From assembly GCA_000002435.2 (NCBI GenBank), contig CM018791.1: a DNA stretch of 64,000 nt. One strand, written 5' to 3'. The notes below the pieces were generated by a model that saw only the letters and a program-made list of their open reading frames with translations, did no database searches and had not been told where the DNA came from. Source of the DNA: Giardia intestinalis (taxonomy: Eukaryota). A program made the translations under genes and the position numbers. Positions 1-39,570 of this stretch are shown here, one piece after another. Position 1 is the first letter of the stretch; every line of letters starts with the position of its first letter.

Positions 1-1214
1 ACCCAAATAAAGGAGTGGCTAATTGTGCAACCTGTACTGCAGCACAACAATGCACTAAGTGCCTTCCGGGCTTCTTTAAGACTAGTGCTACAGCTTGTGA
101 TGCTTGTGGTGATAACTGTGCCACATGTTCTGTTGCTGGTGATCCAAATAAGTGTGAAACCTGCAAGACTGGATACTTCTTGGTAACTACTACAGATCCA
201 CAGGGGAAGAAGTGTGTCCCCTGTGACAGTACAACAGATGGTGGCCGCGAAGGCTGCAGTGTCTGCTCTAGCAACGGTGGATTCAAGTGCACTGAATGTA
301 AGCCCAACTATAAGAAGCAGTCCAATGGTGATGCGGGGGATGACTATACATGTGTGAAGACCTGCGAGGACCCCACGGCTTGTGGTGGTACTTCTGGCGC
401 CTGTGATGCCATCGTAATCGACAACACAGGGAAGGAGCTTCACTACTGTTCATACTGTGGAAAGGACAGTGAGTTCCCCATTAATGGACTATGTGTTGGG
501 AATGAAAAGAAAGAGGGGAATAACTGTAACAGTCATACATGTACATCATGTACTACAGGATACTTCTTGTACATGGGAGGCTGCTATAAGTATGATACAG
601 AACCAGGAAGCCTCATGTGCAAGACCGCTGAAGGGGGCAAGTGCACAGTTGCCAATGATGGTAATAAGTACTTCGTAGTACCAGAGGCACAGACCACTGA
701 TCGGTCCGTGTTGGCCTGTGGCAACCCCCTTGGCACACTAGTAGGCACTGATAGTACCTCTAAGGCATACGTGGGGGTACTCAACTGTTCACAGTGTAAA
801 GCACCAGTAGCTCTGACAACAGTTGGTATGGCTGCCGCTGTCTGTACCTCCTGTGACAATAGTAAGAAGCCCAACAGGGATGGCAGTGGGTGCTTCCCAT
901 GTACCGTTAGTGGATGCTCGCACTGCAACAGGGATGACATGTGCGAGGCATGCAGTAGTGGTAAGAAGGTGAGCCCTGGAAGGAAGTCATGCGTGGATAG
1001 CTGCCCCAGCAACTCCACTGACACCGACTCTGTCTGTGTGTGCAACGATGGATACAGCCCTGACAGCAGTGGGACCTCCTGTGCGTCCTCTGGCACCAAC
1101 AGGAGCGGCCTCAGCACAGGGGCCATCGCGGGGATCGCCGTCGCCGTGGTCGTCGTTGTGGGGGGCCTCGTGGGCTTCCTCTGCTGGTGGTTCATATGTA
1201 GAGGGAAGGCGTGA
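1..1214 (+). CDS. VSP (variant-specific surface protein) unit 1, truncated at its 5' end by the window edge. Ends with a TM helix plus the CRGKA tail.
   Basis: Frame 0 is open from nt 3 to a TGA at 1212-1214. Numerous CXXC motifs. GGCYK motif. C-terminal '...GAIAGIAVAVVVVVGGLVGFLCWWFICRGKA*', a hydrophobic TM helix followed by the invariant 5-aa CRGKA tail. The first ~190 nt are identical to an internal segment of unit 3 (3886 onward). Confidence 0.85.
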   Translation, partial: PNKGVANCATCTAAQQCTKCLPGFFKTSATACDACGDNCATCSVAGDPNKCETCKTGYFLVTTTDPQGKKCVPCDSTTDGGREGCSVCSSNGGFKCTECKPNYKKQSNGDAGDDYTCVKTCEDPTACGGTSGACDAIVIDNTGKELHYCSYCGKDSEFPINGLCVGNEKKEGNNCNSHTCTSCTTGYFLYMGGCYKYDTEPGSLMCKTAEGGKCTVANDGNKYFVVPEAQTTDRSVLACGNPLGTLVGTDSTSKAYVGVLNCSQCKAPVALTTVGMAAAVCTSCDNSKKPNRDGSGCFPCTVSGCSHCNRDDMCEACSSGKKVSPGRKSCVDSCPSNSTDTDSVCVCNDGYSPDSSGTSCASSGTNRSGLSTGAIAGIAVAVVVVVGGLVGFLCWWFICRGKA

Positions 1215-1221
1215 CTTAGGT

Positions 1222-1228
1222 AGTGAAT
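1222..1228 (+). promoter_or_regulatory. Putative Giardia polyadenylation signal AGTGAAT (AGTRAAY class), 8 nt after the unit 1 stop.
   Basis: The motif 'cttaggtAGTGAATgct' recurs after every VSP unit. The Giardia poly(A) signal consensus is AGTRAAY, located within about 30 nt of the stop. Confidence 0.6.
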
Positions 1229-1236
1229 GCTGTACA

Positions 1237-1283
1237 GTGATAGTGATAGTGATAGTGCTATGTGGTGTGTGGGGTGATAGTGG
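1237..1283. repeat. Inter-VSP spacer microsatellite (GTGATA)3 followed by a GT-rich 'GTGTGTGGGGTGATAGTGGTGGTGTGGG' segment.
   Basis: Direct reading: gtgata gtgata gtgata gtg at 1237-1257, then gtgatagtgg at 1274-1283. The 6-nt period keeps one frame open ('VIVIVIV') while placing TGA and TAG in the other two. Confidence 0.85.
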
Positions 1284-1302
1284 TGGTGTGGGACTCCTCT
1301 TC

Positions 1303-3168
1303 ATGGGCGGGTGCTACAACAGGACAAGACCTGGCAGTGAGATATGCACAGCAGCCAGTAACGGAGTATGCACTGCTTGTAATACAAAGAACGGCCTGTT
1401 CAAGAACCCAGTTACACCTCAGAAGCCTGGTAGTGAGTGCATCCTCTGCTGGGACACGGTGGGAGATGGCGCGACGAAGGGAGTAGAGAACTGCGCACAG
1501 TGTCAGGCACCACAGAGTGCAGGAGCAGCTACATGCACTGCCTGTCAAGATGGATACTATAAGAACGCTCAGACATGTGAGAAGTGTGATCAGTCCTGTC
1601 TGACCTGTGAGACTACAGAGACCCAGTGTACCTCTTGTAAGGGAAATACGTTCCTGAAGGATAATGCATGCGTGAATAGTGATGGATGCACTGGAAACAC
1701 TTATGCTGACCCTGTGACAATGACCTGCAAGGCGTCTGCAATAACTGATTGCACCACGTGTGAGTACAACCCGGCAACTGGGGGCCCAAAGTGCACGGCA
1801 TGTAATGGAGCTAAGATAGTCAAGGAAGAGGCCGACGGGACGACTACGTGTATAGACGCCGGCACCTGCACTCAAAGCGGAGCAACTGGTGAGAACTTCT
1901 TGAGCGACGGAGATGCCGAATGCATACTATGTAGCAACGATAGCAGCAAGACAGATAATAACAAGGGAAGCCCCGGTTGCGGGACCTGCAGCAAGAACGG
2001 CGCTAAGCCAGAATGCAAGACGTGCCTCGATGGCTACTACGACAGCGGGAACGGTAACCCCGCCGTATGCGTTGCGTGCGCTGGCGATTGCGGAAAGTGC
2101 GGGCCAGGAGGCGCTATAGATACCTGTGAAAAGTGCAAGCCAGGGTTTTTCTTAAAGAATGACGGGGCCAAGAAGTGCGTCCCCTGCGACGATCCGACAG
2201 ATGGAGTGCCCGGCTGTGCAACGTGCACCTTCTCTAACTCGTTTACTTGTGACTCTTGTAAGGTGAACTACCAAAAGAAGGTAGGGGCTGGAGGAGCGGT
2301 CACGTGTGAGAAGACTTGTGAAGACCCTACTGCTTGTGGTGGTACTTCTGGCGCCTGCGATGCAATAGTGATCGACAACACAGGGAAGGAGCTTCACTAC
2401 TGTTCATACTGTGGAAAGGACAGTGAGTTCCCCATTAATGGACTATGTGTTGGGAATGAAAAGAAAGAGGGGAATAACTGTAACAGTCATACATGTACAT
2501 CATGTACTACAGGATACTTCTTGTACATGGGAGGCTGCTATAAGTATGATACAGAACCAGGAAGCCTCATGTGCAAGACCGCTGAAGGGGGCAAGTGCAC
2601 AGTTGCCAATGATGGTAATAAGTACTTCGTAGTACCAGAGGCACAGACCACTGATCGGTCCGTGTTGGCCTGTGGCAACCCCCTTGGCACACTAGTAGGC
2701 ACTGATAGTACCTCTAAGGCATACGTGGGGGTACTCAACTGTTCACAGTGTACAGCCCCAGCAGCTCCATCTGAGGGTGGCATGACTGCCGCCACGTGCA
2801 CAGCGTGTACCAACAACAACAAGCCCAACCTGGCTGGGAGCGGGTGCTTCCCATGTACCGTTAGTGGATGCTCGCACTGCAACAGGGATGACATGTGCGA
2901 GGCATGCAGTAGTGGTAAGAAGGTGAGCCCTGGAAGGAAGTCATGCGTGGATAGCTGCCCCAGCAACTCCACTGACACCGACTCTGTCTGTGTGTGCAAC
3001 GATGGATACAGCCCTGACAGCAGTGGGACCTCCTGTGCGTCCTCTGGCACCAACAGGAGCGGGCTCTCCACGGGGGCCATCGCGGGCATCTCCGTCGCTG
3101 TGGTCGTCGTCGTGGGGGGCCTCGTGGGCTTCTTGTGTTGGTGGTTCGTGTGTAGAGGGAAGGCGTGA
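1303..3168 (+). CDS. VSP unit 2, N-terminally truncated. The first in-frame ATG lies inside the GGCY motif and there is no signal peptide. Possible silent cassette or pseudogene.
   Basis: The VSP-homologous frame runs from about 1285 to a TGA at 3166-3168 and ends in CRGKA. The ORF-track extension back to 1036 merely reads unit 1's 3' end in the +1 frame. The only in-frame ATG after the previous stop is 1303, giving 'MGGCYNRTRPGSEICTAASNGVCTACN', which has no hydrophobic leader. Nearly identical to unit 6. Confidence 0.8.
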   Translation: MGGCYNRTRPGSEICTAASNGVCTACNTKNGLFKNPVTPQKPGSECILCWDTVGDGATKGVENCAQCQAPQSAGAATCTACQDGYYKNAQTCEKCDQSCLTCETTETQCTSCKGNTFLKDNACVNSDGCTGNTYADPVTMTCKASAITDCTTCEYNPATGGPKCTACNGAKIVKEEADGTTTCIDAGTCTQSGATGENFLSDGDAECILCSNDSSKTDNNKGSPGCGTCSKNGAKPECKTCLDGYYDSGNGNPAVCVACAGDCGKCGPGGAIDTCEKCKPGFFLKNDGAKKCVPCDDPTDGVPGCATCTFSNSFTCDSCKVNYQKKVGAGGAVTCEKTCEDPTACGGTSGACDAIVIDNTGKELHYCSYCGKDSEFPINGLCVGNEKKEGNNCNSHTCTSCTTGYFLYMGGCYKYDTEPGSLMCKTAEGGKCTVANDGNKYFVVPEAQTTDRSVLACGNPLGTLVGTDSTSKAYVGVLNCSQCTAPAAPSEGGMTAATCTACTNNNKPNLAGSGCFPCTVSGCSHCNRDDMCEACSSGKKVSPGRKSCVDSCPSNSTDTDSVCVCNDGYSPDSSGTSCASSGTNRSGLSTGAIAGISVAVVVVVGGLVGFLCWWFVCRGKA

Positions 3169-3175
3169 CTTAGGT

Positions 3176-3182
3176 AGTGAAT
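3176..3182 (+). promoter_or_regulatory. Putative polyadenylation signal AGTGAAT after unit 2.
   Basis: Same conserved 3' flank as the other units. Confidence 0.6.
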
Positions 3183-3194
3183 GCTATACAATGT

Positions 3195-3250
3195 GTGATA
3201 GAGGGTGATAATGGGTGATAATGGGTGATAGGGTGATAGTGGAGTGTGAT
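3195..3250. repeat. Inter-VSP spacer ~10-nt repeat GTGATARNGG, five degenerate copies.
   Basis: gtgatagagg / gtgataatgg / gtgataatgg / gtgataggg / tgatagtgg / agtgtgat. Contains TGA/TAG in all three frames. TAG at 3237-3239 closes the body frame nine nt upstream of the GTG 'start'. Confidence 0.85.
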
Positions 3251-5066
3251 ATGCACAGCAGCCAGTAATGGAGTGTGCACTGAGTGTAATACAGATAGTC
3301 AGTACATATTCCAGAACAGGGCTACACCTCAGAAACCTGGTAGTGAGTGCATTCTGTGCTGGGACACGGTGGGAGATGGCGCGACAAAGGGAGTAGAGAA
3401 CTGCGCCACATGTACAGCGCCAGCTAGTAGTCCAGGAGCTGCCACGTGCGCTGAGTGCAAGGCAGGGTACTATAAAGAGAATAACGAATGCAAACCATGC
3501 CAGGAGAACTGTGCCACATGTACCGGGGCCGGTCAGAATCAGTGTTCATCTTGTAAAGCGGGCTTCTATCTGAAGACTGACAAGTCATGCTCAGAAACCT
3601 GCGATAATAACCAGTACTCCAACCCAAGCACCGGCAAGTGCACAGCCTGTAGTGATGCAGAAGCGGGGATAGCTGATTGCGACACATGCACATACGATAC
3701 GACGCTGCAGAAGCCGAAGTGCACAGCCTGTGGTAGCAGTGGGAAAAAGGTGAAGACGGCCATCGACGGCACCACGACATGTGTTACTGTTACATCCGAT
3801 TGCGTAGACGAGAATCACTTCAAGGCAGATGATGACTCAGCTTGTTATCTATGTAGTGATACAACAGGAACAGACCCAAATAAAGGAGTGGCTAATTGTG
3901 CAACCTGTACTGCAGCACAACAATGCACTAAGTGCCTTCCGGGCTTCTTTAAGACTAGTGCTACAGCTTGTGATGCTTGTGGTGATAACTGTGCCACATG
4001 TTCTGTTGCTGGTGATCCAAATAAGTGTGAAACCTGCAAGACTGGATACTTCTTGGTAACTACTACAGATCCACAGGGGAAGAAGTGTGTCCCCTGTGAC
4101 AGTACAACAGATGGTGGCCGCGAAGGCTGCAGTGTCTGCTCTAGCAACGGTGGATTCAAGTGCACTGAATGTAAGCCCAACTATAAGAAGCAGTCCAATG
4201 GTGATGCGGGGGATGACTATACATGTGTGAAGACCTGCGAGGACCCCACGGCTTGTGGTGGTACTTCTGGCGCCTGTGATGCCATCGTAATCGACAACAC
4301 AGGGAAGGAGCTTCACTACTGTTCTTACTGTGGAAAGGACAGTGAGTTCCCTATTGATGGTATATGTAATAGTGATAAAGGAACTAATCAATGTAATCAA
4401 GGTGTATGTACATCATGTACTACGGGGTACTTTATGTACATGAATGGTTGTTACAAGGTGACAGAGGTGCCGGGTAAGTCCATGTGCACAAAGGCAGGTG
4501 ATGGTGTCTGCACAGAGGCGGCAGCTGGGTACTTCATCCCTCCCTCGCCCACCAAGGACAAGCAGTCTGTCCTCTCCTGTGGGAACCCCCTTGGGGTCGA
4601 GCTGGCTGGTCAGAAGGCATACGTAGGAGTAGATGGCTGCTCCCAGTGTAAAGCACCAGTAGCTCTGACAACAGTTGGTATGGCTGCCGCTGTCTGTACC
4701 TCCTGTGACAATAGTAAGAAGCCCAACAGGGATGGCAGTGGGTGCTTCACATGTACCGTTAGTGGATGCTCGCACTGCAACAGGGATGACATGTGCGAGG
4801 CATGCAGTAGTGGTAAGAAGGTGAGCCCTGGAAGGAAGTCATGCGTGGATAGCTGCCCCAGCAACTCCACTGACACCGACTCTGTCTGTGTGTGCAACGA
4901 TGGATACAGCCCTGACAGCAGTGGGACCTCCTGTGCGTCCTCTGGCACCAACAGGAGCGGGCTCTCCACGGGGGCCATCGCGGGCATCTCCGTGGCTGTG
5001 GTCGTTGTCGTGGGGGGCCTCGTGGGCTTCCTCTGCTGGTGGTTCATATGTAGAGGGAAGGCGTAG
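3246..5066 (+). CDS. VSP unit 3. There is no ATG; the ORF-track start is a GTG. No signal peptide; ends in CRGKA. Possible silent cassette or pseudogene.
   Basis: Positions 3246-3248 are GTG. A TAG at 3237-3239, within the GTGATA spacer, closes the frame immediately upstream. None of the five ATGs in the spacer is in the body frame, and each meets a stop within 6-16 codons. The first in-frame ATG is about 1.2 kb downstream ('GYFMYMNGCYKV'). CXXC-rich. Conserved 'CEDPTACGGTSGACDAIVID...HYCSYCG' core. TM helix plus CRGKA, TAG at 5064-5066. Confidence 0.8.
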   Translation: MICTAASNGVCTECNTDSQYIFQNRATPQKPGSECILCWDTVGDGATKGVENCATCTAPASSPGAATCAECKAGYYKENNECKPCQENCATCTGAGQNQCSSCKAGFYLKTDKSCSETCDNNQYSNPSTGKCTACSDAEAGIADCDTCTYDTTLQKPKCTACGSSGKKVKTAIDGTTTCVTVTSDCVDENHFKADDDSACYLCSDTTGTDPNKGVANCATCTAAQQCTKCLPGFFKTSATACDACGDNCATCSVAGDPNKCETCKTGYFLVTTTDPQGKKCVPCDSTTDGGREGCSVCSSNGGFKCTECKPNYKKQSNGDAGDDYTCVKTCEDPTACGGTSGACDAIVIDNTGKELHYCSYCGKDSEFPIDGICNSDKGTNQCNQGVCTSCTTGYFMYMNGCYKVTEVPGKSMCTKAGDGVCTEAAAGYFIPPSPTKDKQSVLSCGNPLGVELAGQKAYVGVDGCSQCKAPVALTTVGMAAAVCTSCDNSKKPNRDGSGCFTCTVSGCSHCNRDDMCEACSSGKKVSPGRKSCVDSCPSNSTDTDSVCVCNDGYSPDSSGTSCASSGTNRSGLSTGAIAGISVAVVVVVGGLVGFLCWWFICRGKA

Positions 5067-5076
5067 GTACTTAGGT

Positions 5077-5083
5077 AGTGAAT
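5077..5083 (+). promoter_or_regulatory. Putative polyadenylation signal AGTGAAT after unit 3.
   Basis: Same conserved 3' flank. Confidence 0.6.
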
Positions 5084-5094
5084 GCTGTACAATG

Positions 5095-5152
5095 TGTGAT
5101 AGAAGGTGATAGTGGGTGATAATGGGTGATAGAGGGTGATAGTGGAGTGTGA
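5095..5152. repeat. Inter-VSP spacer GTGATARNGG-type repeat.
   Basis: gtgatagaaggtgatagtgggtgataatgggtgatagagggtgatagtggagtgtgat. Same architecture as 3195-3250. Confidence 0.85.
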
Positions 5153-6870
5153 TATGCACAAAGGCTGAGGGAGGAGTGTGCACTGCTTGTAAGGCAGATA
5201 ACGGCCTGTTCAAGAACCCGGCTGCAGCACCGAAGCCTGGTAGTGAGTGCATACTGTGCTCTGATATCAAGGGAGCAGATGGATATACGGGGGTGGCTAA
5301 CTGCGCACAGTGTACCAAGTCAGACAGTAGTCCAGGAGCAGCCACGTGTAGTACCTGCAGAGATGGATACTACATGGACTCTCAGGCATGTGTCAAATGT
5401 AATGACGCTTGTCTGACCTGCGATGGAAGTGGTCCGAATCAGTGTACATCGTGCCCAGAGGGGAAGTACCTGAAGACTGACAAGTCATGCGTGAATAATA
5501 ATGGATGCACTGGAAACACTTATGCTGACCCTGTGACAATGACCTGCAAGGATTCTGCAATAACTGATTGCACCACGTGTGAGTACAATGCGACCGTCAG
5601 TAAGCCCCAGTGCACCGCCTGTAATAACAATAAGAAGGTGAAGACGGCCATCGACGGCACCACGACATGTGTTACTGTTACATCCGATTGCGTAGACGAG
5701 AATCACTTCAAGGCAGATGATGACTCAGCTTGTTATCTATGTAGTGATACAACAGGAACAGACCCAAATAAAGGAGTGGCTAATTGTGCAACCTGTACTG
5801 CAGCACAACAATGCACTAAGTGCCTTCCGGGCTTCTTTAAGACTAGTGCTACAGCTTGTGATGCTTGTGGTGATAACTGTGCCACATGTTCTGTTGCTGG
5901 TGATCCAAATAAGTGTGAAACCTGCAAGACTGGATACTTCTTAGTAACTACTACAGATCAACAGGGGAAGAAGTGCGTCCCATGCGATAGCGTAGACGAT
6001 AAGGGTCGCGAAGGCTGCAGTGTCTGCTCTAACAACGGTGCTTTCAAGTGCACTGACTGTAAGCCTAACTATCGCAAGGAGGGCAGTACTGGCTCTGTCA
6101 CATGCACCAAGATCTGTGAAGATGATACTGCCTGTGGAGGAACTTCTGGTGCCTGCGATGCAATAGTGATTGATGATAAGGGTGTAGAGCATCATTATTG
6201 CTCATACTGTGGAGAAGCTAATACGTATCCTATAGATGGGAAGTGTAATAGTGCTAAAGCAAATAATCAATGTGATCAAGGTGTATGTACACAATGCACT
6301 AACAACTACTTCTTGTATATGGGAGGTTGTTACAAGGTTGATACAGTACCTGGACAACATATGTGCAAGACAGCAGCCAACGGTGTCTGTACTGCTGTTA
6401 ATGCCAACAATAGGTACTTCATAGTCCCTGGGGCAACCAATCAGAATCAGTCTGTATTGGCATGTAGCAACTCCCTTGGCACACTAGTAGGCACTGGTGA
6501 TACCTCTAAGGCATATGTGGGGGTAGATGGCTGTTCGGCATGTACGGCCCCAGCAGCTCTGTCTGATGGTGGTATGACTGCCGCTGTGTGTACCTCCTGT
6601 GACAGTGGTAAGGTGCCCAACAAGGACGGCAGTGGGTGTGTGACATGCTCTGTGGGTGATTGTAAGAGCTGTGTGATGGATAATATATGTGAAGAGTGCA
6701 ACAGTGGTTTCAGCATAGACAGCAGTGGGGCCTCCTGTGTGTCTATGAGTACCAACAGGAGCGGGCTCTCCACGGGGGCCATCGCGGGGATCTCCGTCGC
6801 TGTGGTCGTTGTCGTGGGGGGCCTCGTGGGCTTCCTCTGCTGGTGGTTCATATGTAGAGGGAAGGCATGA
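5149..6870 (+). CDS. VSP unit 4, the most divergent copy. There is no ATG; the ORF-track start is a GTG. No signal peptide; ends in CRGKA.
   Basis: Positions 5149-5151 are GTG. The frame is open to a TGA at 6868-6870. Its C-terminal cysteine module is distinct ('CVTCSVGDCKSCVMDNICEECNSGFSIDSSGASCVSMSTNRSGLSTG...') but the TM helix and CRGKA tail are the same. The 5' half is shared with unit 7. Confidence 0.8.
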   Translation: MICTKAEGGVCTACKADNGLFKNPAAAPKPGSECILCSDIKGADGYTGVANCAQCTKSDSSPGAATCSTCRDGYYMDSQACVKCNDACLTCDGSGPNQCTSCPEGKYLKTDKSCVNNNGCTGNTYADPVTMTCKDSAITDCTTCEYNATVSKPQCTACNNNKKVKTAIDGTTTCVTVTSDCVDENHFKADDDSACYLCSDTTGTDPNKGVANCATCTAAQQCTKCLPGFFKTSATACDACGDNCATCSVAGDPNKCETCKTGYFLVTTTDQQGKKCVPCDSVDDKGREGCSVCSNNGAFKCTDCKPNYRKEGSTGSVTCTKICEDDTACGGTSGACDAIVIDDKGVEHHYCSYCGEANTYPIDGKCNSAKANNQCDQGVCTQCTNNYFLYMGGCYKVDTVPGQHMCKTAANGVCTAVNANNRYFIVPGATNQNQSVLACSNSLGTLVGTGDTSKAYVGVDGCSACTAPAALSDGGMTAAVCTSCDSGKVPNKDGSGCVTCSVGDCKSCVMDNICEECNSGFSIDSSGASCVSMSTNRSGLSTGAIAGISVAVVVVVGGLVGFLCWWFICRGKA

Positions 6871-6877
6871 CTCAGGT

Positions 6878-6884
6878 AGTGAAT
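6878..6884 (+). promoter_or_regulatory. Putative polyadenylation signal AGTGAAT after unit 4.
   Basis: Same conserved 3' flank ('ctcaggtagtgaat'). Confidence 0.6.
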
Positions 6885-6890
6885 GCTATA

Positions 6891-6950
6891 CAATGTGTGA
6901 TAATGGGTAATAGAGGGTGATAGTGTGATAGTGATAGTGGAGTGTGATAT
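6891..6950. repeat. Inter-VSP spacer GTGATA-type repeat (degenerate 10-nt and 6-7-nt copies).
   Basis: gtgtgataatgggtaatagagggtgatagtgtgatagtgatagtggagtgtgat. Confidence 0.8.
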
Positions 6951-8791
6951 GCACAAAGGCCAGTAGTGGACTGTGCACTGCTTGTAAGACAGATAACAAG
7001 TACATATTCCAGAACAGGGCAGACAAGGTGACTCCTGGTGGGGAGTGCATCTTGTGCTCTGATATCAAGGGAGCGAATGAGAACAAAGGAGTGGCCAACT
7101 GCCTCAAGTGCACGGCGCCAGCTAGTAGTCCAGGACCTGCCACGTGTACTGAGTGCAAGGCTGGGTACGTTAAGGATAGCGTTTCTAATACGTGTAAGAA
7201 GTGCGGAGAGGGCTGCTCAGAGAGTAATCAAAATCAATGCTCGGCATGCGTTGAGGGGAAGTACCTGAAGGGTGATAACACTTGTGTAGAGGCTAGTGGA
7301 TGCGGTGCTGGTAACTATGCAGACCCGACAACAGGCCAATGTAAGGCATGTGATCCCGACATAGCTGGGTGCACCGCATGTGAATATAATGATGCCACGG
7401 GGAAGCCAAGGTGCACCAACTGCGGGACCAATAAGACCCCCAGGACGACCCTTGATGGGACCTCGACCTGTGTGACAAAAGACTACGCTGGATGTAAAGG
7501 CGCTGACGGGGCCCTATTTATGAAGGAGGACAAAACATGTGTTTTATGCAGTACCGTTTCAGCTGGAGCCGATCCAAATGACCAGGGCATTGCCGGGTGT
7601 AAGAAGTGTACCAAGGACTCGGCGACACCGCCAACCTGCTCGGAGTGCCTCGACGGATATTACAATAGCGCAACTGGTGGTAGTGGTACGGCTACATGTG
7701 AAGCTTGTGGTGATAATTGTGCCACCTGTGCTAAGGATACAAAAGACCAATGCATGACCTGTAAGCCCGGGTTCTTCATGAAAGGTAGTGGTCCTGGCAC
7801 ATGCGTCCCCTGTGATGACCAAACAGATGGAGTGCCTGGCTGTGCAACGTGCACCTTCTCTAGCTCGTTGACCTGCAACTCCTGTAAGCCCAACTACAAG
7901 CAGAGTGGTACCGGTCCTTTTACATGCACCAAGACTTGTGAAGACCCCACTGCCTGCGGGGGCACTTCTGGTGCCTGCGATGCCATGATAATTGATGATC
8001 AGGGCACCACAAAGCACTACTGTTCCTACTGTGGAGAGACCAATAAGATACCAATTGATGGGAAGTGTGTTGATAGTGGTAGTATAAATGGTAATACTTG
8101 TGCTAAAGGTGTATGTACACAGTGTGCTCAAGGATACTTCTTATACATGGGAGGCTGTTATAAGGTAGCAAGTCCACCCGGTAACCTCATGTGCACTGAA
8201 GCAACAACAGCTGGTGTCTGTGATACACCCAATGCCAATAATAAGTACTTCGTAGTCCCAGAAGCAAAGCCTACTCAACAGTCTGTGTTGGCTTGTGGTA
8301 ACCCCCTGGGCACACTAGTAGGCACTGATAGTACCGCTAAGGCATATGTGGGGGTGGATGGCTGCTCCCAGTGTACAGCCCCAACAGCTCCATCTGAGGG
8401 TGGCATGACTGCCGCCACGTGCACAGCGTGTACCAACAACAACAAGCCCAACCTGGCTGGGAGCGGGTGCTTCCCATGTACCGTTAGTGGATGCTCGCAC
8501 TGCAACAGGGATGACATGTGCGAGGCATGCAGTAGTGGTAAGAAGGTGAGCCCTGGAAGGAAGTCATGCGTGGATAGCTGCCCCAGCAACTCCACTGATG
8601 ATAACTCTGTCTGTGTGTGCAACGATGGATACAGCCCTGACAGCAGTGGGACCTCCTGTGTGTCCTCTGGCGCCAACAGGAGCGGCCTCAGCACAGGGGC
8701 CATCGCGGGGATCGCCGTCGCCGTGGTCGTCGTTGTGGGGGGCCTCGTGGGCTTCCTCTGCTGGTGGTTCATATGTAGAGGGAAGGCGTGA
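6944..8791 (+). CDS. VSP unit 5. There is no ATG; the ORF-track start is a GTG. No signal peptide; ends in CRGKA.
   Basis: Positions 6944-6946 are GTG. TGA at 8789-8791. CXXC-rich with a GGCYK motif. The C-terminal 100 aa are nearly identical to the other units. The 3' end plus the following spacer are identical to the unit 1 to unit 2 junction. Confidence 0.8.
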   Translation: MICTKASSGLCTACKTDNKYIFQNRADKVTPGGECILCSDIKGANENKGVANCLKCTAPASSPGPATCTECKAGYVKDSVSNTCKKCGEGCSESNQNQCSACVEGKYLKGDNTCVEASGCGAGNYADPTTGQCKACDPDIAGCTACEYNDATGKPRCTNCGTNKTPRTTLDGTSTCVTKDYAGCKGADGALFMKEDKTCVLCSTVSAGADPNDQGIAGCKKCTKDSATPPTCSECLDGYYNSATGGSGTATCEACGDNCATCAKDTKDQCMTCKPGFFMKGSGPGTCVPCDDQTDGVPGCATCTFSSSLTCNSCKPNYKQSGTGPFTCTKTCEDPTACGGTSGACDAMIIDDQGTTKHYCSYCGETNKIPIDGKCVDSGSINGNTCAKGVCTQCAQGYFLYMGGCYKVASPPGNLMCTEATTAGVCDTPNANNKYFVVPEAKPTQQSVLACGNPLGTLVGTDSTAKAYVGVDGCSQCTAPTAPSEGGMTAATCTACTNNNKPNLAGSGCFPCTVSGCSHCNRDDMCEACSSGKKVSPGRKSCVDSCPSNSTDDNSVCVCNDGYSPDSSGTSCVSSGANRSGLSTGAIAGIAVAVVVVVGGLVGFLCWWFICRGKA

Positions 8792-8798
8792 CTTAGGT

Positions 8799-8805
8799 AG
8801 TGAAT
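8799..8805 (+). promoter_or_regulatory. Putative polyadenylation signal AGTGAAT after unit 5.
   Basis: Same conserved 3' flank. Confidence 0.6.
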
Positions 8806-8813
8806 GCTGTACA

Positions 8814-8860
8814 GTGATAGTGATAGTGATAGTGCTATGTGGTGTGTGGGGTGATAGTGG
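8814..8860. repeat. Inter-VSP spacer (GTGATA)3 plus a GT-rich segment, identical to 1237-1283.
   Basis: The whole 88-nt junction 8792-8879 is identical to 1215-1302. Confidence 0.85.
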
Positions 8861-8879
8861 TGGTGTGGGACTCCTCTTC

Positions 8880-10748
8880 ATGGGCGGGTGCTACAAGGCA
8901 GGACAAGATCCTGGCAGTGAGATATGCACAGCAGCCAGTAACGGAGTATGCACTGCTTGTAATACAAAGAACGGCCTGTTCAAGAACCCAGTTACACCTC
9001 AGAAGCCTGGTAGTGAGTGCATCCTCTGCTGGGACACGGTGGGAGATGGCGCGACGAAGGGAGTAGAGAACTGCGCACAGTGTCAGGCACCACAGAGTGC
9101 AGGAGCAGCTACATGCACTGCCTGTCAAGATGGATACTATAAGAACGCTCAGACATGTGAGAAGTGTGATCAGTCCTGTCTGACCTGTGAGACTACAGAG
9201 ACCCAGTGTACCTCTTGTAAGGGAAATACGTTCCTGAAGGATAATGCATGCGTGAATAGTGATGGATGCACTGGAAACACTTATGCTGACCCTGTGACAA
9301 TGACCTGCAAGGCGTCTGCAATAACTGATTGCACCACGTGTGAGTACAACCCGGCAACTGGGGGCCCAAAGTGCACGGCATGTAATGGAGCTAAGATAGT
9401 CAAGGAAGAGGCCGACGGGACGACTACGTGTATAGACGCCGGCACCTGCACTCAAAGCGGAGCAACTGGTGAGAACTTCTTGAGCGACGGAGATGCCGAA
9501 TGCATACTATGTAGCAACGATAGCAGCAAGACAGATAATAACAAGGGAAGCCCCGGTTGCGGGACCTGCAGCAAGAACGGCGCTAAGCCAGAATGCAAGA
9601 CGTGCCTCGATGGCTACTACGACAGCGGGAACGGTAACCCCGCCGTATGCGTTGCGTGCGCTGGCGATTGCGGAAAGTGCGGGCCAGGAGGCGCTATAGA
9701 TACCTGTGAAAAGTGCAAGCCAGGGTTTTTCTTAAAGAATGACGGGGCCAAGAAGTGCGTCCCCTGCGACGATCCGACAGATGGAGTGCCCGGCTGTGCA
9801 ACGTGCACCTTCTCTAACTCGTTTACTTGTGACTCTTGTAAGGTGAACTACCAAAAGAAGGTAGGGGCTGGAGGAGCGGTCACGTGTGAGAAGACTTGTG
9901 AAGACCCTACTGCTTGTGGTGGTACTTCTGGCGCCTGCGATGCAATAGTGATCGACAACACAGGGAAGGAGCTTCACTACTGTTCATACTGTGGAAAGGA
10001 CAGTGAGTTCCCCATTAATGGACTATGTGTTGGGAATGAAAAGAAAGAGGGGAATAACTGTAACAGTCATACATGTACATCATGTACTACAGGATACTTC
10101 TTGTACATGGGAGGCTGCTATAAGTATGATACAGAACCAGGAAGCCTCATGTGCAAGACCGCTGAAGGGGGCAAGTGCACAGTTGCCAATGATGGTAATA
10201 AGTACTTCGTAGTACCAGAGGCACAGACCACTGATCGGTCCGTGTTGGCCTGTGGCAACCCCCTTGGCACACTAGTAGGCACTGATAGTACCTCTAAGGC
10301 ATACGTGGGGGTACTCAACTGTTCACAGTGTACAGCCCCAGCAGCTCCATCTGAGGGTGGCATGACTGCCGCCACGTGCACAGCGTGTACCAACAACAAC
10401 AAGCCCAACCTGGCTGGGAGCGGGTGCTTCCCATGTACCGTTAGTGGATGCTCGCACTGCAACAGGGATGACATGTGCGAGGCATGCAGTAGTGGTAAGA
10501 AGGTGAGCCCTGGAAGGAAGTCATGCGTGGATAGCTGCCCCAGCAACTCCACTGACACCGACTCTGTCTGTGTGTGCAACGATGGATACAGCCCTGACAG
10601 CAGTGGGACCTCCTGTGCGTCCTCTGGCACCAACAGGAGCGGGCTCTCCACGGGGGCCATCGCGGGGATCTCCGTCGCCGTGGTCGTTGTCGTGGGGGGC
10701 CTCGTGGGCTTCCTCTGCTGGTGGTTCATATGTAGAGGGAAGGCGTGA
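8880..10748 (+). CDS. VSP unit 6, a near-duplicate of unit 2. The first in-frame ATG lies inside the GGCY motif and there is no signal peptide.
   Basis: ATG at 8880-8882 giving 'MGGCYKAGQDPGSEICTAAS...'. The remainder is identical to unit 2 at the protein level apart from one 3-nt indel with adjacent substitutions near the start. It lies 7577-7580 nt downstream of unit 2. TGA at 10746-10748. The ORF-track start at 8598 is an out-of-frame read-through of unit 5's 3' end. Confidence 0.8.
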   Translation: MGGCYKAGQDPGSEICTAASNGVCTACNTKNGLFKNPVTPQKPGSECILCWDTVGDGATKGVENCAQCQAPQSAGAATCTACQDGYYKNAQTCEKCDQSCLTCETTETQCTSCKGNTFLKDNACVNSDGCTGNTYADPVTMTCKASAITDCTTCEYNPATGGPKCTACNGAKIVKEEADGTTTCIDAGTCTQSGATGENFLSDGDAECILCSNDSSKTDNNKGSPGCGTCSKNGAKPECKTCLDGYYDSGNGNPAVCVACAGDCGKCGPGGAIDTCEKCKPGFFLKNDGAKKCVPCDDPTDGVPGCATCTFSNSFTCDSCKVNYQKKVGAGGAVTCEKTCEDPTACGGTSGACDAIVIDNTGKELHYCSYCGKDSEFPINGLCVGNEKKEGNNCNSHTCTSCTTGYFLYMGGCYKYDTEPGSLMCKTAEGGKCTVANDGNKYFVVPEAQTTDRSVLACGNPLGTLVGTDSTSKAYVGVLNCSQCTAPAAPSEGGMTAATCTACTNNNKPNLAGSGCFPCTVSGCSHCNRDDMCEACSSGKKVSPGRKSCVDSCPSNSTDTDSVCVCNDGYSPDSSGTSCASSGTNRSGLSTGAIAGISVAVVVVVGGLVGFLCWWFICRGKA

Positions 10749-10755
10749 CTTAGGT

Positions 10756-10762
10756 AGTGAAT
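10756..10762 (+). promoter_or_regulatory. Putative polyadenylation signal AGTGAAT after unit 6.
   Basis: Same conserved 3' flank. Confidence 0.6.
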
Positions 10763-10774
10763 GCTGTACAATGT

Positions 10775-10830
10775 GTGATAGAAGGTGATAGTGGGTGATA
10801 ATGGGTGATAGAGGGTGATAGTGGAGTGTG
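10775..10830. repeat. Inter-VSP spacer GTGATARNGG-type repeat.
   Basis: gtgatagaaggtgatagtgggtgataatgggtgatagagggtgatagtggagtgtgat, identical to the 5095-5152 spacer. Confidence 0.85.
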
Positions 10831-12633
10831 ATATGCACAAAGGCTGAGGGAGGAGTGTGCACTGCTTGTAAGGCAGATAACGGCCTGTTCAAGAACCCAG
10901 TTACACCTCAGAAGCCTGGTGGGGAGTGCATACTGTGCTCTGATATCAAGGGAGCAGATGGATATACGGGGGTGGCTAACTGCGCACAGTGTACCAAGTC
11001 AGACAGTAGTCCAGGAGCAGCCACGTGTAGTACCTGCAGAGATGGATACTACATGGACTCTCAGGCATGTGTCAAATGTAATGACGCTTGTCTGACCTGC
11101 GATGGAAGTGGTCCGAATCAGTGTACATCGTGCCCAGAGGGGAAGTACCTGAAGACTGACAAGTCATGCGTGAATAATAATGGATGCACTGGAAACACTT
11201 ATGCTGACCCTGTGACAATGACCTGCAAGGATTCTGCAATAACTGATTGCACCACGTGTGAGTACAATGCGACCGTCAGTAAGCCCCAGTGCACCGCCTG
11301 TAATAACAATAAGAAGGTGAAGACGGCCATCGACGGCACCACGACATGTGTTACTGTTACATCCGATTGCGTAGACGAGAATCACTTCAAGGCAGATGAT
11401 GACTCAGCTTGTTATCTATGTAGTGATACAACAGGAACAGACCCAAATAAAGGAGTGGCTAATTGTGCAACCTGTACTGCAGCACAACAATGCACTAAGT
11501 GCCTTCCGGGCTTCTTTAAGACTAGTGCTACAGCTTGTGATGCTTGTGGTGATAACTGTGCCACATGTTCTGTTGCTGGTGATCCAAATAAGTGTGAAAC
11601 CTGCAAGACTGGATACTTCTTGGTAACTACTACAGATCCACAGGGGAAGAAGTGTGTCCCCTGTGACAGTACAACAGATGGTGGCCGCGAAGGCTGCAGT
11701 GTCTGCTCTAGCAACGGTGGATTCAAGTGCACTGAATGTAAGCCCAACTATAAGAAGCAGTCCAATGGTGATGCGGGGGATGACTATACATGTGTGAAGA
11801 CCTGCGAGGACCCCACGGCTTGTGGTGGTACTTCTGGCGCCTGTGATGCCATCGTAATCGACAACACAGGGAAGGAGCTTCACTACTGTTCTTACTGTGG
11901 AAAGGACAGTGAGTTCCCTATTGATGGTATATGTAATAGTGATAAAGGAACTAATCAATGTAATCAAGGTGTATGTACATCATGTACTACGGGGTACTTT
12001 ATGTACATGAATGGTTGTTACAAGGTGACAGAGGTGCCGGGTAAGTCCATGTGCACAAAGGCAGGTGATGGTGTCTGCACAGAGGCGGCAGCTGGGTACT
12101 TCATCCCTCCCTCGCCCACCAAGGACAAGCAGTCTGTCCTCTCCTGTGGGAACCCCCTTGGGGTCGAGCTGGCTGGCCAGAAGGCATACGTAGGAGTAGA
12201 TGGCTGTTCACAGTGTACAGCACCAAAACAGCTAGAGGCTCCTGGCATGACTCCTGCTATATGTACCTCTTGTGACAGTAGTAAGAAGCCCAACAGGGAT
12301 GGCAGTGGGTGCTTCCCATGTACCGTTAGTGGATGCTCGCACTGTGATATGGACAACATGTGCGAGGCATGCAGTAGTGGTAAGAAGGTGAGCCCTGGAA
12401 GGAAGTCATGCGTGGATAGCTGCCCCAGCAACTCCACTGATGATAACTCTGTCTGTGTGTGCAACGATGGATATAGCCCTGACAGCAGTGGGACCTCCTG
12501 TGTGTCCTCTGGCGCCAACAGGAGCGGCCTCAGCACAGGGGCCATCGCGGGGATCTCCGTCGCTGTGGTCGTCGTCGTGGGGGGCCTCGTCGGCTTCCTC
12601 TGCTGGTGGTTCGTGTGCAGGGGGAAGGCGTAG
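10828..12633 (+). CDS. VSP unit 7, the terminal unit. It is a chimera of the unit 4 5' half and the unit 3 3' half. There is no ATG; the ORF-track start is a GTG. Ends in CRGKA.
   Basis: Positions 10828-10830 are GTG. The N-terminal ~270 aa match unit 4 ('MICTKAEGGVCTACKADNGLFKNP...'). From 'DPQGKKCVPCDSTTDGGREGCSVCSSNGGFKCTECKPNYKKQSNGDAGDDY' onward it matches unit 3. TAG at 12631-12633. Its 3' flank differs from the others: a duplicated 'acttag', AGTAAAC instead of AGTGAAT, and no GTGATA repeat. Confidence 0.8.
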   Translation: MICTKAEGGVCTACKADNGLFKNPVTPQKPGGECILCSDIKGADGYTGVANCAQCTKSDSSPGAATCSTCRDGYYMDSQACVKCNDACLTCDGSGPNQCTSCPEGKYLKTDKSCVNNNGCTGNTYADPVTMTCKDSAITDCTTCEYNATVSKPQCTACNNNKKVKTAIDGTTTCVTVTSDCVDENHFKADDDSACYLCSDTTGTDPNKGVANCATCTAAQQCTKCLPGFFKTSATACDACGDNCATCSVAGDPNKCETCKTGYFLVTTTDPQGKKCVPCDSTTDGGREGCSVCSSNGGFKCTECKPNYKKQSNGDAGDDYTCVKTCEDPTACGGTSGACDAIVIDNTGKELHYCSYCGKDSEFPIDGICNSDKGTNQCNQGVCTSCTTGYFMYMNGCYKVTEVPGKSMCTKAGDGVCTEAAAGYFIPPSPTKDKQSVLSCGNPLGVELAGQKAYVGVDGCSQCTAPKQLEAPGMTPAICTSCDSSKKPNRDGSGCFPCTVSGCSHCDMDNMCEACSSGKKVSPGRKSCVDSCPSNSTDDNSVCVCNDGYSPDSSGTSCVSSGANRSGLSTGAIAGISVAVVVVVGGLVGFLCWWFVCRGKA

Positions 12634-12653
12634 ACTTAGCTGTGTACTTAGGT

Positions 12654-12660
12654 AGTAAAC
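12654..12660 (+). promoter_or_regulatory. Putative polyadenylation signal AGTAAAC (the canonical Giardia form) after the terminal unit 7.
   Basis: 'tacttaggtAGTAAACgc'. The flank differs from the internal junctions and marks the array boundary. Confidence 0.6.
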
Positions 12661-15600: not shown

Positions 15601-16542
15601 ATCGGCGCACGCAGGCAGAGGGCCAGCCAGGGTGAATGTCGTGGCCGGCCAGCTGCGCATCAGCCCTAGCTCACGGCCCAGAGAGCATTCAGTCGCCTGT
15701 TACCGGACGGGCCTGTCTGGTAGATCGTTGGCCCAGACCGCGGTGTTCGAGTCGTCTGCGCACACGGGAGAGACCTGCCTTCTCCTGCTGTGTGTGGTCT
15801 CTTCAACGATGTGTAAGCTGCGTCTGGTGGGCCCTGCGCTGTGCCGTGGTTGAGCATGCTGCACGCTCTAGGCATGACGGTCTCGCCACTGACCAGGACT
15901 TCAACTATTAGCTGCTCCTACCGACCACTCTTCGATGCCCCTCGACGACCACCAGACAAGCCGAGCTCTCCAGTCTTCAGCCCTTACTGGGGTATGTATC
16001 AGCGCACCCAGGCACGCCCCCGTAGCCCGCAGGGGGGAAGCATGGCACGCATGCGAAGGAAGTGGGCGGCCCGAGAAGATCCTGGCCCGTCTGGAGCGAG
16101 AGGGTGCCGGGCCCAGGAACGACCCCGGGCGGGAGGGCGAGGACGAGGCACCCCGGCGTGCGCGGGGGCAGAAGCGCAGAGACCGCGCCCGGAGCCACAA
16201 AGACCGGCCCCCCAACGGGCGGCACCAGCGGAGGCGCGGCGCAACCAAGAACGCAGGGGGGCGAAGAGTTTGGTCAGAGTGTACAATCGTGTATGTGAGG
16301 AAGCTACAAACGGAGATATCAAAGGTAGAAAGAGTGGCCCAGTTATATACCCTCATTGGGCCCCAATTTATCAGAACACTAGCTCTATAACTGGCATCAG
16401 CTTGTTACTCCATGCATGTACGCAGTACTGCAAGAGTGTTACTAAGAATTGGCAAACCTGTCCATGATACAGTGGAAATTGTACCTTCTAAAACGGCTCA
16501 GAAAGGTGATCATTCCAAGACTTCTTACCATGTGTTGCCTAC
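12661..16542. other. GC-rich (~57-60%) non-repetitive region of about 3.9 kb with no convincing ORF. Candidates are an ORF desert, a degenerate element, or the edge of the array.
   Basis: Only short overlapping ORFs (208 aa or less) on all six strands, with a length distribution like random sequence. No CXXC, ankyrin or RT motifs were noticed. The composition is unlike the flanking Giardia coding DNA. Confidence 0.5.
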
Positions 16543-39491: not shown

Positions 39492-39570
39492 ATCAGTTCC
39501 CAGATACCACGTTCTGAGCAATGTAACACAGTGTAGCACGGTACAAAAAAGTCTGGTGCCTTTGCAGGGG

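Follow-up and report, generated by a model that had tools for sequence, protein, structure and literature searches.

The 64,000 nt window of Giardia intestinalis DNA analysed here opens on a psiVSP linear array, the units of which lack the 5′ end of a complete VSP, keep an intact 3′ end and have been reshuffled with one another and with GL50803_00114674, a complete VSP that apparently heads the array. It is most likely that this array is a silent archive, diversifying the VSP repertoire over evolutionary time, and not a device for switching the expressed VSP. The window is from the WB C6 GL2.1 assembly (contig NC_051858.1, 1,973,847 bp), and the WB proteins KAE8303326 to KAE8303336 are exact matches to window proteins. 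Seven VSP units, six whole and one cut, lie head-to-tail on the + strand at 1-12633, with 3′ ends at 1214, 3168, 5066, 6870, 8791, 10748, and 12633. Units 2 to 7 are the annotated pseudogenes GL50803_0050321 to 0050326, matched by sequence start and length, and at least one further pVSP (0050319) lies between the window and GL50803_00114674. The whole array has at least eight copies with 5′ truncation, GL50803_0050319 to 0050326. Its features are as follows.

1..1214, + strand: unit 1, incomplete because the window begins inside it; last 399 codons, including the TM segment, CRGKA, and stop; probably pVSP GL50803_0050320, from the numbering of the neighbouring locus tags
1215..1302, + strand: type-A junction; poly(A) signal CTTAGGTAGTGAAT, (GTGATA)3 repeat of period 6, and GT-rich remnant
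1303..3168, + strand: unit 2, pVSP GL50803_0050321; annotated ORF from the M of MGGCY, 621 aa
3169..3245, + strand: type-B junction; poly(A) signal, Inr-like CAATGTG, and GTGATARNGG decamer repeats
3246..5066, + strand: unit 3, pVSP GL50803_0050322; annotated 3240-5066, 1827 nt; ORF codon 1 is GTG
5067..5148, + strand: type-B junction; decamer repeats at 5096-5142
5149..6870, + strand: unit 4, pVSP GL50803_0050323; 5′ 870 nt exactly as in unit 7
6871..6943, + strand: type-B junction
6944..8791, + strand: unit 5, pVSP GL50803_0050324; annotated 6938-8791, 1854 nt
7340..8788, + strand: tract within unit 5; 483 residues identical to residues 238-720 of GL50803_00114674 (KAE8303325.1)
8792..8879, + strand: type-A junction; copy identical to 1215-1302
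8880..10748, + strand: unit 6, pVSP GL50803_0050325; 622 aa when read from the MGGCY methionine
10749..10827, + strand: type-B junction; decamer repeats at 10775-10821
10828..12633, + strand: unit 7, pVSP GL50803_0050326; final array unit, mosaic
12634..12667, + strand: array-terminal extended poly(A) signal (ACTTAGCTGTGTACTTAGGTAGTAAACGCAT); also the S6 table entry for GL50803_0050326

The unit bodies have the features of the VSP family. Pfam PF03302 VSP is matched by the units (E=1e-30 to 1e-43), and the full units have a Cys content of 11.8-12.2 %, 25-26 CXXC motifs each, and an internal FLYMGGCY or YMNGCY motif. A VSP 3′ end, taken to be a TM segment, CRGKA, and then the extended poly(A) signal ACTYAGRTAGTRAAY, is present in the units; all seven end in ...GLVGFLCWWF[I/V]CRGKA and a stop codon, which is followed by the poly(A) signal ACTYAGGTAGTRAAY, with the variants CT[T/C]AGGTAGTGAAT or TACTTAGGTAGTAAAC. 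There are no in-frame stops in the 4037 unit codons, whereas each unit has 9-72 stops in the remaining forward frames, and dN/dS is 0.19-0.41 in the divergent parts of the units. Such low values and intact frames could come from functional donors, with no need for selection on the array. A collection of 15 billion proteins contains none of the unit ORFs.

At the 5′ ends, the first-pass annotation had reported cassettes with no ATG start and no signal peptide, and this is borne out for all seven units by a scan of in-frame ATGs and hydropathy; searching the junction frames for ATG ORFs that reach a unit body found no ATG with a hydrophobic leader before any unit. As reported there, the first ORF codon in units 3, 4, 5, and 7 is GTG (3246, 5149, 6944, and 10828), with a stop in the body frame just 5′ of each (3237, 5140, 6935, and 10819); the first in-frame ATG is 305-1266 nt downstream of the stop of the preceding unit. 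Spacer ATGs do terminate early, but they are not all out of frame as had been described, since those at 5092, 5122, 6893, 10771, and 10801 share the body frame and reach a stop after five codons. Likewise, in units 2 and 6 the ATG of MGGCY has no leader, but it is not the single in-frame ATG: the body frame is open across the spacer, back to 973 and 8550, and further in-frame ATGs within the 3′ end of the preceding unit (1048 for unit 2, 8598/8625 for unit 6) give an extension of 85-94 residues without an N-terminal leader. A signal peptide of 14-17 residues after the ATG, the form seen in VSPs and judged here by hydropathy scan, is absent from the units. The maximum 9-residue Kyte-Doolittle mean at the candidate unit N-termini is ≤1.9, where real VSP leaders score 2.3-3.3 by identical scoring. 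The poly(A)-signal ATG (1227 and 8804) is out of frame in the window, at 1227 by +1 nt. In WB paralogues it is in frame, giving old gene models that start ‘MLYSDSDS..GGCY’; this start is no signal peptide either.

Each body begins 73-88 nt after the stop of the preceding unit, and the only elements in these junctions are a poly(A) signal and simple repeats rich in GT. The units are therefore without an initiator, a start codon, or an export signal, and are unable to make a surface VSP. In the type-B junction at 3169-3245, the TGATAG stops of the decamer repeat rotate through all three frames. The initiator PyAATGTT, which is found at the start codon of many expressible VSPs, does not occur in the junctions; type B has only CAATGTG, heading a 5-codon ORF, and type A has nothing comparable. 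Nor is there an AT-rich initiator in the junctions, in which the longest A/T run is 3-5 nt, whereas an 8-12 nt A/T run is found upstream of 11 of the 12 housekeeping genes in the window. The earlier description of 5′-truncated cassettes with intact 3′ ends is thus supported, and transcriptional silence would be expected.

GL50803_00114674 (KAE8303325.1) is, by accession order, the protein-coding gene directly before KAE8303326 on the same contig. It encodes a complete VSP, with the Inr TAATGTT, the signal peptide MFQLIPLFVASALMAAC, a TM segment, and a CRGKA tail, and is transcribed at a low level. Its place at the head of the array follows apparently from accession order, not from DNA; the DNA compared was its first 399 nt, and its adjacency, its strand, and the nucleotide identity of the 483-residue tract we infer. 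DNA homology to this gene begins at codon 91 in units 2 and 6 and at codon 107 in units 3, 4, 5, and 7 (nt 272 or 321 of the CDS), starting at 1295 in the type-A junction. The units are therefore without the first 90 or 105 codons of their complete paralogue, and its residues 1-90 are absent from the window. Similarity of the unit 5′ end to an internal GGCY module, to which it had been attributed, does exist (about 35 % identity, E about 1e-12); its true counterpart is however the GGCY module that lies N-proximal in complete VSPs.

Against a background identity of 55-75 %, the units share exact tracts of 100-1757 nt. In unit 1, stretches matching units 3/7, 2/6, and 5 form a mosaic, while unit 7 combines the 5′ part of unit 4, the middle of unit 3, and a tail resembling that of unit 5. 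Identity between units 2 and 6 is 99.6 %, and multi-unit duplications are present at offsets of 7577 and 5682. Comparison with the VSP repertoire, which the first-pass annotation had proposed as a check, does find tracts in common with the units: the last 483 residues of GL50803_00114674 are identical to unit 5, and unit 4 has exact tracts of 113 aa and 200 aa in two former VSP models of WB (XP_001705783 and XP_001705784, whose consecutive accession numbers make them probable neighbours), with the middle of unit 4 identical to XP_001705784 over the 200 aa. This supports recombination among the array units, and also with GL50803_00114674, on an evolutionary timescale, which does not in itself demonstrate recombinational switching. 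Each unit begins at its first GGCY module, with 90-105 codons missing. In the favoured explanation, unequal crossing-over in one-, three-, and four-unit registers, together with segmental gene conversion, expands and reshuffles the array, and through these events sequence is also swapped with the head gene.

Arrays of this kind have been described before. Linear vsp arrays were proposed to be unexpressed recombination cassettes in the relevant passages of Adam et al. (2010; BMC Genomics 11:424, PMC2996952), and those of the article on the genome of G. muris (Xu et al., 2020, Microb Genom 6:mgen000402, PMC7641422) compare psiVSP arrays with the silent reservoirs of trypanosomes and Pneumocystis. 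The silent-donor interpretation, printed in the former and taken up again for G. muris, thus stands in the literature as a hypothesis yet to be proven, and the array is already known. In the passages on WB linear arrays (Adam et al., 2010; Xu et al., 2020, Sci Data 7:38) the same object is described: head-to-tail members with spacers of tens of bp (mean about 60 bp, 73-88 nt in the window), a first member that is a typical complete VSP, preceded by non-coding DNA and equipped with an Inr (here apparently GL50803_00114674), downstream members without Inr, proper start codon, or signal peptide, as in the window units annotated as pseudogenes, and long identical regions common to members, with no categorical difference from the array in the window. 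The suggestion of a notable arrangement does not hold, because the reference genome already lists these very units as pVSP pseudogenes, and the finding itself adds nothing to that annotation and the three papers. Added here are the extent of the truncation, the identity of 483 residues between GL50803_00114674 and unit 5, the mosaics, and the open frames with dN/dS of 0.2-0.4; the passages of Adam et al. (2010) and Xu et al. (2020) on these arrays do not mention a truncation point at the first GGCY module, two junction types, or the 483-residue identity.

In G. muris, the passages on psiVSP arrays likewise describe tandem VSP copies without signal peptides, with evidence of recombination or segmental conversion with intact VSPs, for which a silent reservoir is proposed as in WB (Xu et al., 2020, Microb Genom). 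The arrays there are telomere-adjacent, whereas in WB the array lies inside a chromosome with housekeeping genes on its flanks; the G. muris tail is CRGK rather than CRGKA, and there are 26 intact VSPs as opposed to 133-136 in WB. Several percent of the Giardia genome consists of psiVSPs, approximately 200 in number, perhaps either as an archive for new antigens or as debris, and the window holds one clean, fully assembled example. As a complete, Inr-bearing VSP apparently heads the array and has two-thirds of its coding sequence in common with one silent unit, this is a convenient locus for the cassette hypothesis of 2010.

It is rather unlikely that the array is a neutral by-product without use, in which frames are open only from youth or from repeated overwriting by functional VSPs. 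The near-identity of units 2 and 6 and the multi-unit duplications do look recent, the array is absent at the syntenic position in A2 strains and is thus dispensable there, and the surroundings of VSPs are gene-poor and variable in the WB account (Xu et al., 2020). However, distinct units have diverged to a dS of ~0.8-2 with no stop or frameshift in ~600 codons, of 76 Cys columns 67 show no variation among the five distinct units, and overwriting from functional genes is the very exchange that a reservoir requires.

Beyond the silent archive favoured here, it is improbable that the array is an active donor, with conversion at a measurable rate from units such as GL50803_0050324 into GL50803_00114674 or other complete VSPs, clonally or during infection. 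The GT-rich, G-run repeats of the junctions could then mark tract boundaries, and may be likened to the 70-bp repeats of VSG and the G4 motif of pilE. If true, this would add recombinational diversification on top of the epigenetic/RNAi switch.

A role at the RNA level, with read-through or antisense array transcripts feeding RNAi or antisense silencing of non-selected VSPs, is very improbable. Similarity to many VSPs would here be the useful trait; VSP antisense is abundant, sense reads exceed antisense in only 12-20 % of VSP genes, and long tracts are common to the units and several complete or formerly annotated VSPs. On the other hand, the + strand of the junctions has no promoter-like AT-rich element, psiVSP arrays are essentially untranscribed in the G. 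muris account (PMC7641422), and such a role gives no reason for keeping a protein reading frame and cysteines.

Highly unlikely is the recombinational antigenic variation that had been suggested for this array, in which the head gene or some other active VSP would receive copies of units in the course of an infection, giving real-time mosaics as for VSG, vlsE, pilS, and msp2; the cassette structure on which the suggestion was based stands, but exchange is evidenced on an evolutionary timescale only. The VSG pseudogene arrays of T. brucei, Borrelia vls, Neisseria pilS, and Anaplasma msp2 are promoter-less, 5′-truncated, in-frame tandem copies with a mosaic history, next to or apart from an expressible gene, and at the level of sequence the window array is alike; the 483 residues held in common with unit 5 and the low-level transcription of GL50803_00114674 are also in keeping with switching. 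Unlike in those systems, switching in Giardia is reported to occur without DNA change, with vsp sequence and location unchanged in work cited by Adam et al. (2010; PMC2996952), and conservation of VSP genes in the AI isolates WB and Be-2 is reported in the title of PMC11169602. In the systems named above, cassettes go to one or a few dedicated expression sites, with conversion experimentally shown during switching, whereas conversion in the WB array is historical, read from one genome state. WB has 136 complete VSPs scattered over its chromosomes, 130 with transcription evidence, and one of these intact genes is expressed per clonal line; GL50803_00114674 is only one of >130 independently expressible VSPs.

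Translation of the units from unconventional starts, be it the upstream ATGs (1048 and 8598), the MGGCY methionine, or a GTG in (GTGATA)n, is scarcely credible; one point against it is that mRNA leaders in Giardia are very short, with initiation at the first AUG. The (GTGATA)n repeat in the body frame does encode a hydrophobic (Val-Ile)n stretch, the open type-A junction frame reads ...CCTVIVIVIVLCGVWG..., the old WB model P0011 begins with the leader-like MIVLCGVLCSVG.. from the same repeat, and a passage in 10.1101/2022.03.07.483299 mentions membrane localisation of ‘VSPs’ without signal peptides; however, no ATG precedes the hydrophobic stretch in the window, the upstream ATGs first add at least 60 hydrophilic residues, and the junctions of units 3, 4, 5, and 7 are stopped in all three frames.

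Seven gene copies for variant-specific surface proteins (VSPs) lie head to tail on the + strand at window 1-12633, the first of them cut at the window edge. All seven encode the C-terminus ...GLVGFLCWWF[I/V]CRGKA, followed a few bases on by the extended VSP poly(A) signal, and the three full units tested matched Pfam PF03302 (VSP) at E=1e-30 to 1e-43. Between units, the distance from the stop to the first body codon is 73-88 nt, and these junctions contain nothing but the poly(A) signal followed by simple GT-rich repeats. Units 2 to 7 match, exactly in first bases and length, pseudo-VSP genes without a start (pVSPs or psiVSPs) on NC_051858.1 that are listed in Tables S6 and S7 of Rodriguez-Walker et al. 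(bioRxiv 10.1101/2022.03.07.483299).

Gene copies of the array, with the position of each stop on the + strand.
Unit 1, + strand, stop at 1214: presumably GL50803_0050320
Unit 2, + strand, stop at 3168: pVSP GL50803_0050321
Unit 3, + strand, stop at 5066: pVSP GL50803_0050322
Unit 4, + strand, stop at 6870: pVSP GL50803_0050323
Unit 5, + strand, stop at 8791: pVSP GL50803_0050324
Unit 6, + strand, stop at 10748: pVSP GL50803_0050325
Unit 7, + strand, stop at 12633: pVSP GL50803_0050326

One more copy resembling unit 2, GL50803_0050319, is outside the window. Five long housekeeping proteins in the window are exact matches to WB C6 (ATCC 50803) proteins (KAE8303327, KAE8303329, KAE8303335, KAE8303336, and XP_001704717.1), as are KAE8303326 and KAE8303328; the KAE-numbered proteins are on a 1,973,847-bp contig of the GL2.1 assembly. 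The unit ORFs were not found as proteins in a collection of 15 billion sequences, because they are annotated as pseudogenes. The feature is real, and at the sequence level its description in the first-pass annotation is correct apart from small errors.

No hidden start was found in any junction when all frames were re-scanned. The GTG openings reported for units 3, 4, 5, and 7 are present at 3246, 5149, 6944, and 10828, and the stop said to lie directly upstream of each is a TAG in the body frame, the reading frame of the following unit, two codons before the GTG. The first in-frame ATG in these units is 305-1266 nt past the preceding unit's stop. Spacer ATGs had been described as all out of frame and as terminating within a few codons. 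The latter mostly holds, with ORFs from junction ATGs of 4-16 codons and a single exception, a 42-codon ORF that opens at an out-of-frame ATG just within the 5′ end of unit 3; the former does not, since the ATGs at 5092, 5122, 6893, 10771, and 10801 are in frame, with a stop after five codons. Nor do units 2 and 6 have only one in-frame ATG, as had been proposed: the body frame is open across the whole junction and there are more ATGs at 1048 and 8598/8625. These sit within the preceding unit and give an extension of 85-94 residues with no leader. It was likewise borne out that no unit combines an ATG with a signal peptide, as no candidate start leads into a hydrophobic segment: hydropathy averaged over 9 residues peaks at no more than 1.9 at candidate starts, versus 2.3-3.3 in genuine VSP leaders under identical scoring.

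The ATG within the poly(A) signal (1227, 8804) is one base out of frame here and in frame in WB paralogues, where it has led to old gene models beginning 'MLYSDSDS...GGCY', an N-terminus that is not a signal peptide. A sequencing frameshift hiding the start of units 2 and 6 was rejected, the restored N-terminus (MLYSDSDS...) being hydrophilic and the base identical in both units. The GT/G run at window 1264-1275 reads TGGTGTGTGGGG here versus TGGTGTGGGGG in the paralogue GL50803_0050264 (Table S7), a one-base difference in length. The length of this run would set the frame of the poly(A)-signal ATG relative to the psiVSP body, making it a putative slippage-prone toggle of ORF status.

Two types of junction are present. 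Type A, before units 2 and 6, contains a (GTGATA)3 repeat of period 6 in which two frames stay open, Val-Ile and Asp-Ser. Read in the body frame, the copies at 1236-1256 (unit 2) and 8813-8833 (unit 6) give Val-Ile-Val-Ile (...CCTVIVIVIVLCGVWG...), and one GTG mutated to ATG would supply a start with a hydrophobic, leader-like segment behind it. Such a change apparently gave rise to the old WB model XP_001707663 (P0011), which starts MIVLCGVLCSVG..LLFMGGCY. Type B, before units 3, 4, 5, and 7, contains 4-5 copies of GTGATARNGG with a period of 10, a spacing that brings the TGATAG double stop into each of the three frames in turn. Type B junctions also have CAATGTG, resembling the initiator element (Inr), at the head of a 5-codon ORF. 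G-runs are in register within the junction repeats of both type B (3203-3242, 5105-5145, 10784-10824) and type A (1264-1292, 8841-8869). In the type B decamers, GG or GGG every 10 nt gives four or five G-runs with 7-nt loops, which may amount to a weak pattern of G-quadruplex type in the coding strand; loops are shorter in the type A stretches, and the pattern is missing from the junction before unit 5.

The 5′ end of each unit had been considered homologous to an internal VSP module. The similarity exists (~35 % identity), but that module is a paralogue only, and the unit ends correspond to the N-proximal GGCY module found in complete VSPs. Complete VSPs of the same clade (P0005, P0020, P0034) have a signal peptide and then an N-terminal module of ~80 residues ending FLFMGGCYK, after which they run on into the sequence that opens the units. 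When the first 399 nt of the complete VSP gene GL50803_00114674 (P0034), taken from a supplementary table, were aligned to each junction, homology extended from nt 272 (codon 91) onwards for units 2 and 6, whereas for units 3, 4, 5, and 7 it started at nt 321 (codon 107). No counterpart of residues 1-90 was found anywhere in the window. Transcription in Giardia is driven by AT-rich initiators, and its genes typically carry a short one. The junctions have none, their longest A/T run being 3-5 nt; 11 of the 12 housekeeping genes in the same window have an A/T run of 8-12 nt no more than 60 nt upstream. Retroposition of 5′-truncated cDNAs was rejected as an origin of the units, there being no A-tract after the poly(A) site.

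GL50803_00114674 (KAE8303325.1, XP_001703945.1) is one of 136 complete VSPs, with an Inr (TAATGTT), a signal peptide (MFQLIPLFVASALMAAC), a TM segment, and CRGKA; its TPM values are low but non-zero. KAE8303325.1 is on the contig of the array, and its accession immediately precedes that of KAE8303326 (16543-17421), the gene closest to the array on its right side that is not a VSP. Pseudogenes are given no protein accession, therefore GL50803_00114674 is probably the closest protein-coding gene on the left side, and from this accession order we infer that it heads the array. A complete first gene is described for many arrays by Adam et al. 2010 (PMC2996952). Over 483 residues (238-720), GL50803_00114674 is identical to unit 5 (window 7340-8788), and its first 237 residues differ from that unit.

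Pairwise nucleotide identity between units is 67 % to 99.6 % and is uneven along them. Stretches of 55-75 % identity are interspersed with exact tracts of 100-1757 nt, and each unit is therefore a patchwork of other units. For example, unit 7 combines the 5′ part of unit 4 (~870 nt) with an exact 863-nt tract that it shares with unit 3 and ends in a tail of different sequence; in unit 1, blocks resembling units 3, 2, and 5 alternate. There are also larger duplications in multi-unit register, in which 662-3448 matches 8239-11027 (offset 7577), 3708-5074 matches 11277-12639, and 4716-5981 matches 10398-11660 (offset 5682). Unit 4 also shares exact tracts with the old WB models XP_001705783 (113 residues) and XP_001705784 (200 residues), whose consecutive accession numbers suggest that they are neighbours. 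Together, these tracts and duplications carry the hallmarks of unequal crossing-over and of gene conversion by segments. A solitary VSP in an A2-like assembly (L013, ENA ERZ28528424 NODE_39) shares with the array only the conserved 3′ end, at 84-90 % identity, and no long identical tracts.

The reading frames are preserved. Not one of 4037 codons is an in-frame stop, while the two other forward frames hold 9-72 stops per unit. A full unit carries 25-26 CXXC motifs, and among the five distinct units 67 of 76 cysteine columns do not vary. In the divergent parts, dN/dS is 0.19-0.41 at dS ~0.8-2. The truncated junction architecture is common to all units, therefore the divergence was either generated in situ, under constraint on the protein, or brought in from functional VSPs by conversion. 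Under either origin, the array is not simply decaying.

This is an already annotated psiVSP linear array, and its proposed role, as silent cassettes for recombinational antigenic variation, is a hypothesis from 2010. According to Adam et al. 2010 (PMC2996952), more than half of WB vsp genes are in linear arrays with spacers of ~60 bp, downstream members never have an Inr, and long 100 %-identical regions are common to members. Xu et al. count 133 VSPs and 208 psiVSPs in WB, and arrays of start-less pVSPs are restated by Rodriguez-Walker et al. (bioRxiv 10.1101/2022.03.07.483299). In G. muris, psiVSP arrays are essentially untranscribed, recombination or conversion with intact VSPs was inferred, and the authors of the genome paper likened the system to those of Pneumocystis and T. 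brucei (PMC7641422). Given these earlier papers, both the observation and the interpretation are already published. Historical mosaicism does not demonstrate a real-time donor role during switching. Switching of vsp genes occurs without change in sequence or location, according to work cited in Adam et al. 2010 (PMC2996952), and instead of a single expression site WB has 136 VSPs that can be expressed. It is very unlikely that the array converts the head gene in real time.

To the right, the 3.4 kb from the array to the first housekeeping gene (12634-16015) is 58 % GC, with no convincing gene and no internal repeats. In the A2 strains (DH and ENA assembly ERZ28528424), synteny stops ~530 nt past the flanking gene, at window ~15998-16015, and it is likewise lost there in all short-read contigs. 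No VSP tail was found within 10 kb of this break in DH, ERZ28528424, or the short-read contigs; past it, DH has an ankyrin gene and a reverse-transcriptase gene in place of the array. The array is therefore a strain-variable insertion at the synteny break, which is consistent with rapid turnover and is uninformative as to function.

The solitary VSP of the A2-like contig (P0006; L013:9878-10001) has an in-frame leader-like ...FLLIPLFAVSTIAVTC upstream of its called start and no ATG at the site where WB paralogues read MFQLIPLF, which could be due to a lost start codon or an assembly error. In the WB window, the gene at 24760-27834 encodes domains of polysaccharide lyase family 8 and carries the annotation 'glycosaminoglycan polysaccharide lyase', an unusual enzyme in a protist and likely to be a lateral transfer. 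The TCP-1/cpn60 gene (37812-39491) overlaps the longest ORF of the next gene (39469-41190) by 23 nt (39469-39491); in other assemblies a later start is called for this downstream gene (2780-2825, locus coordinates).
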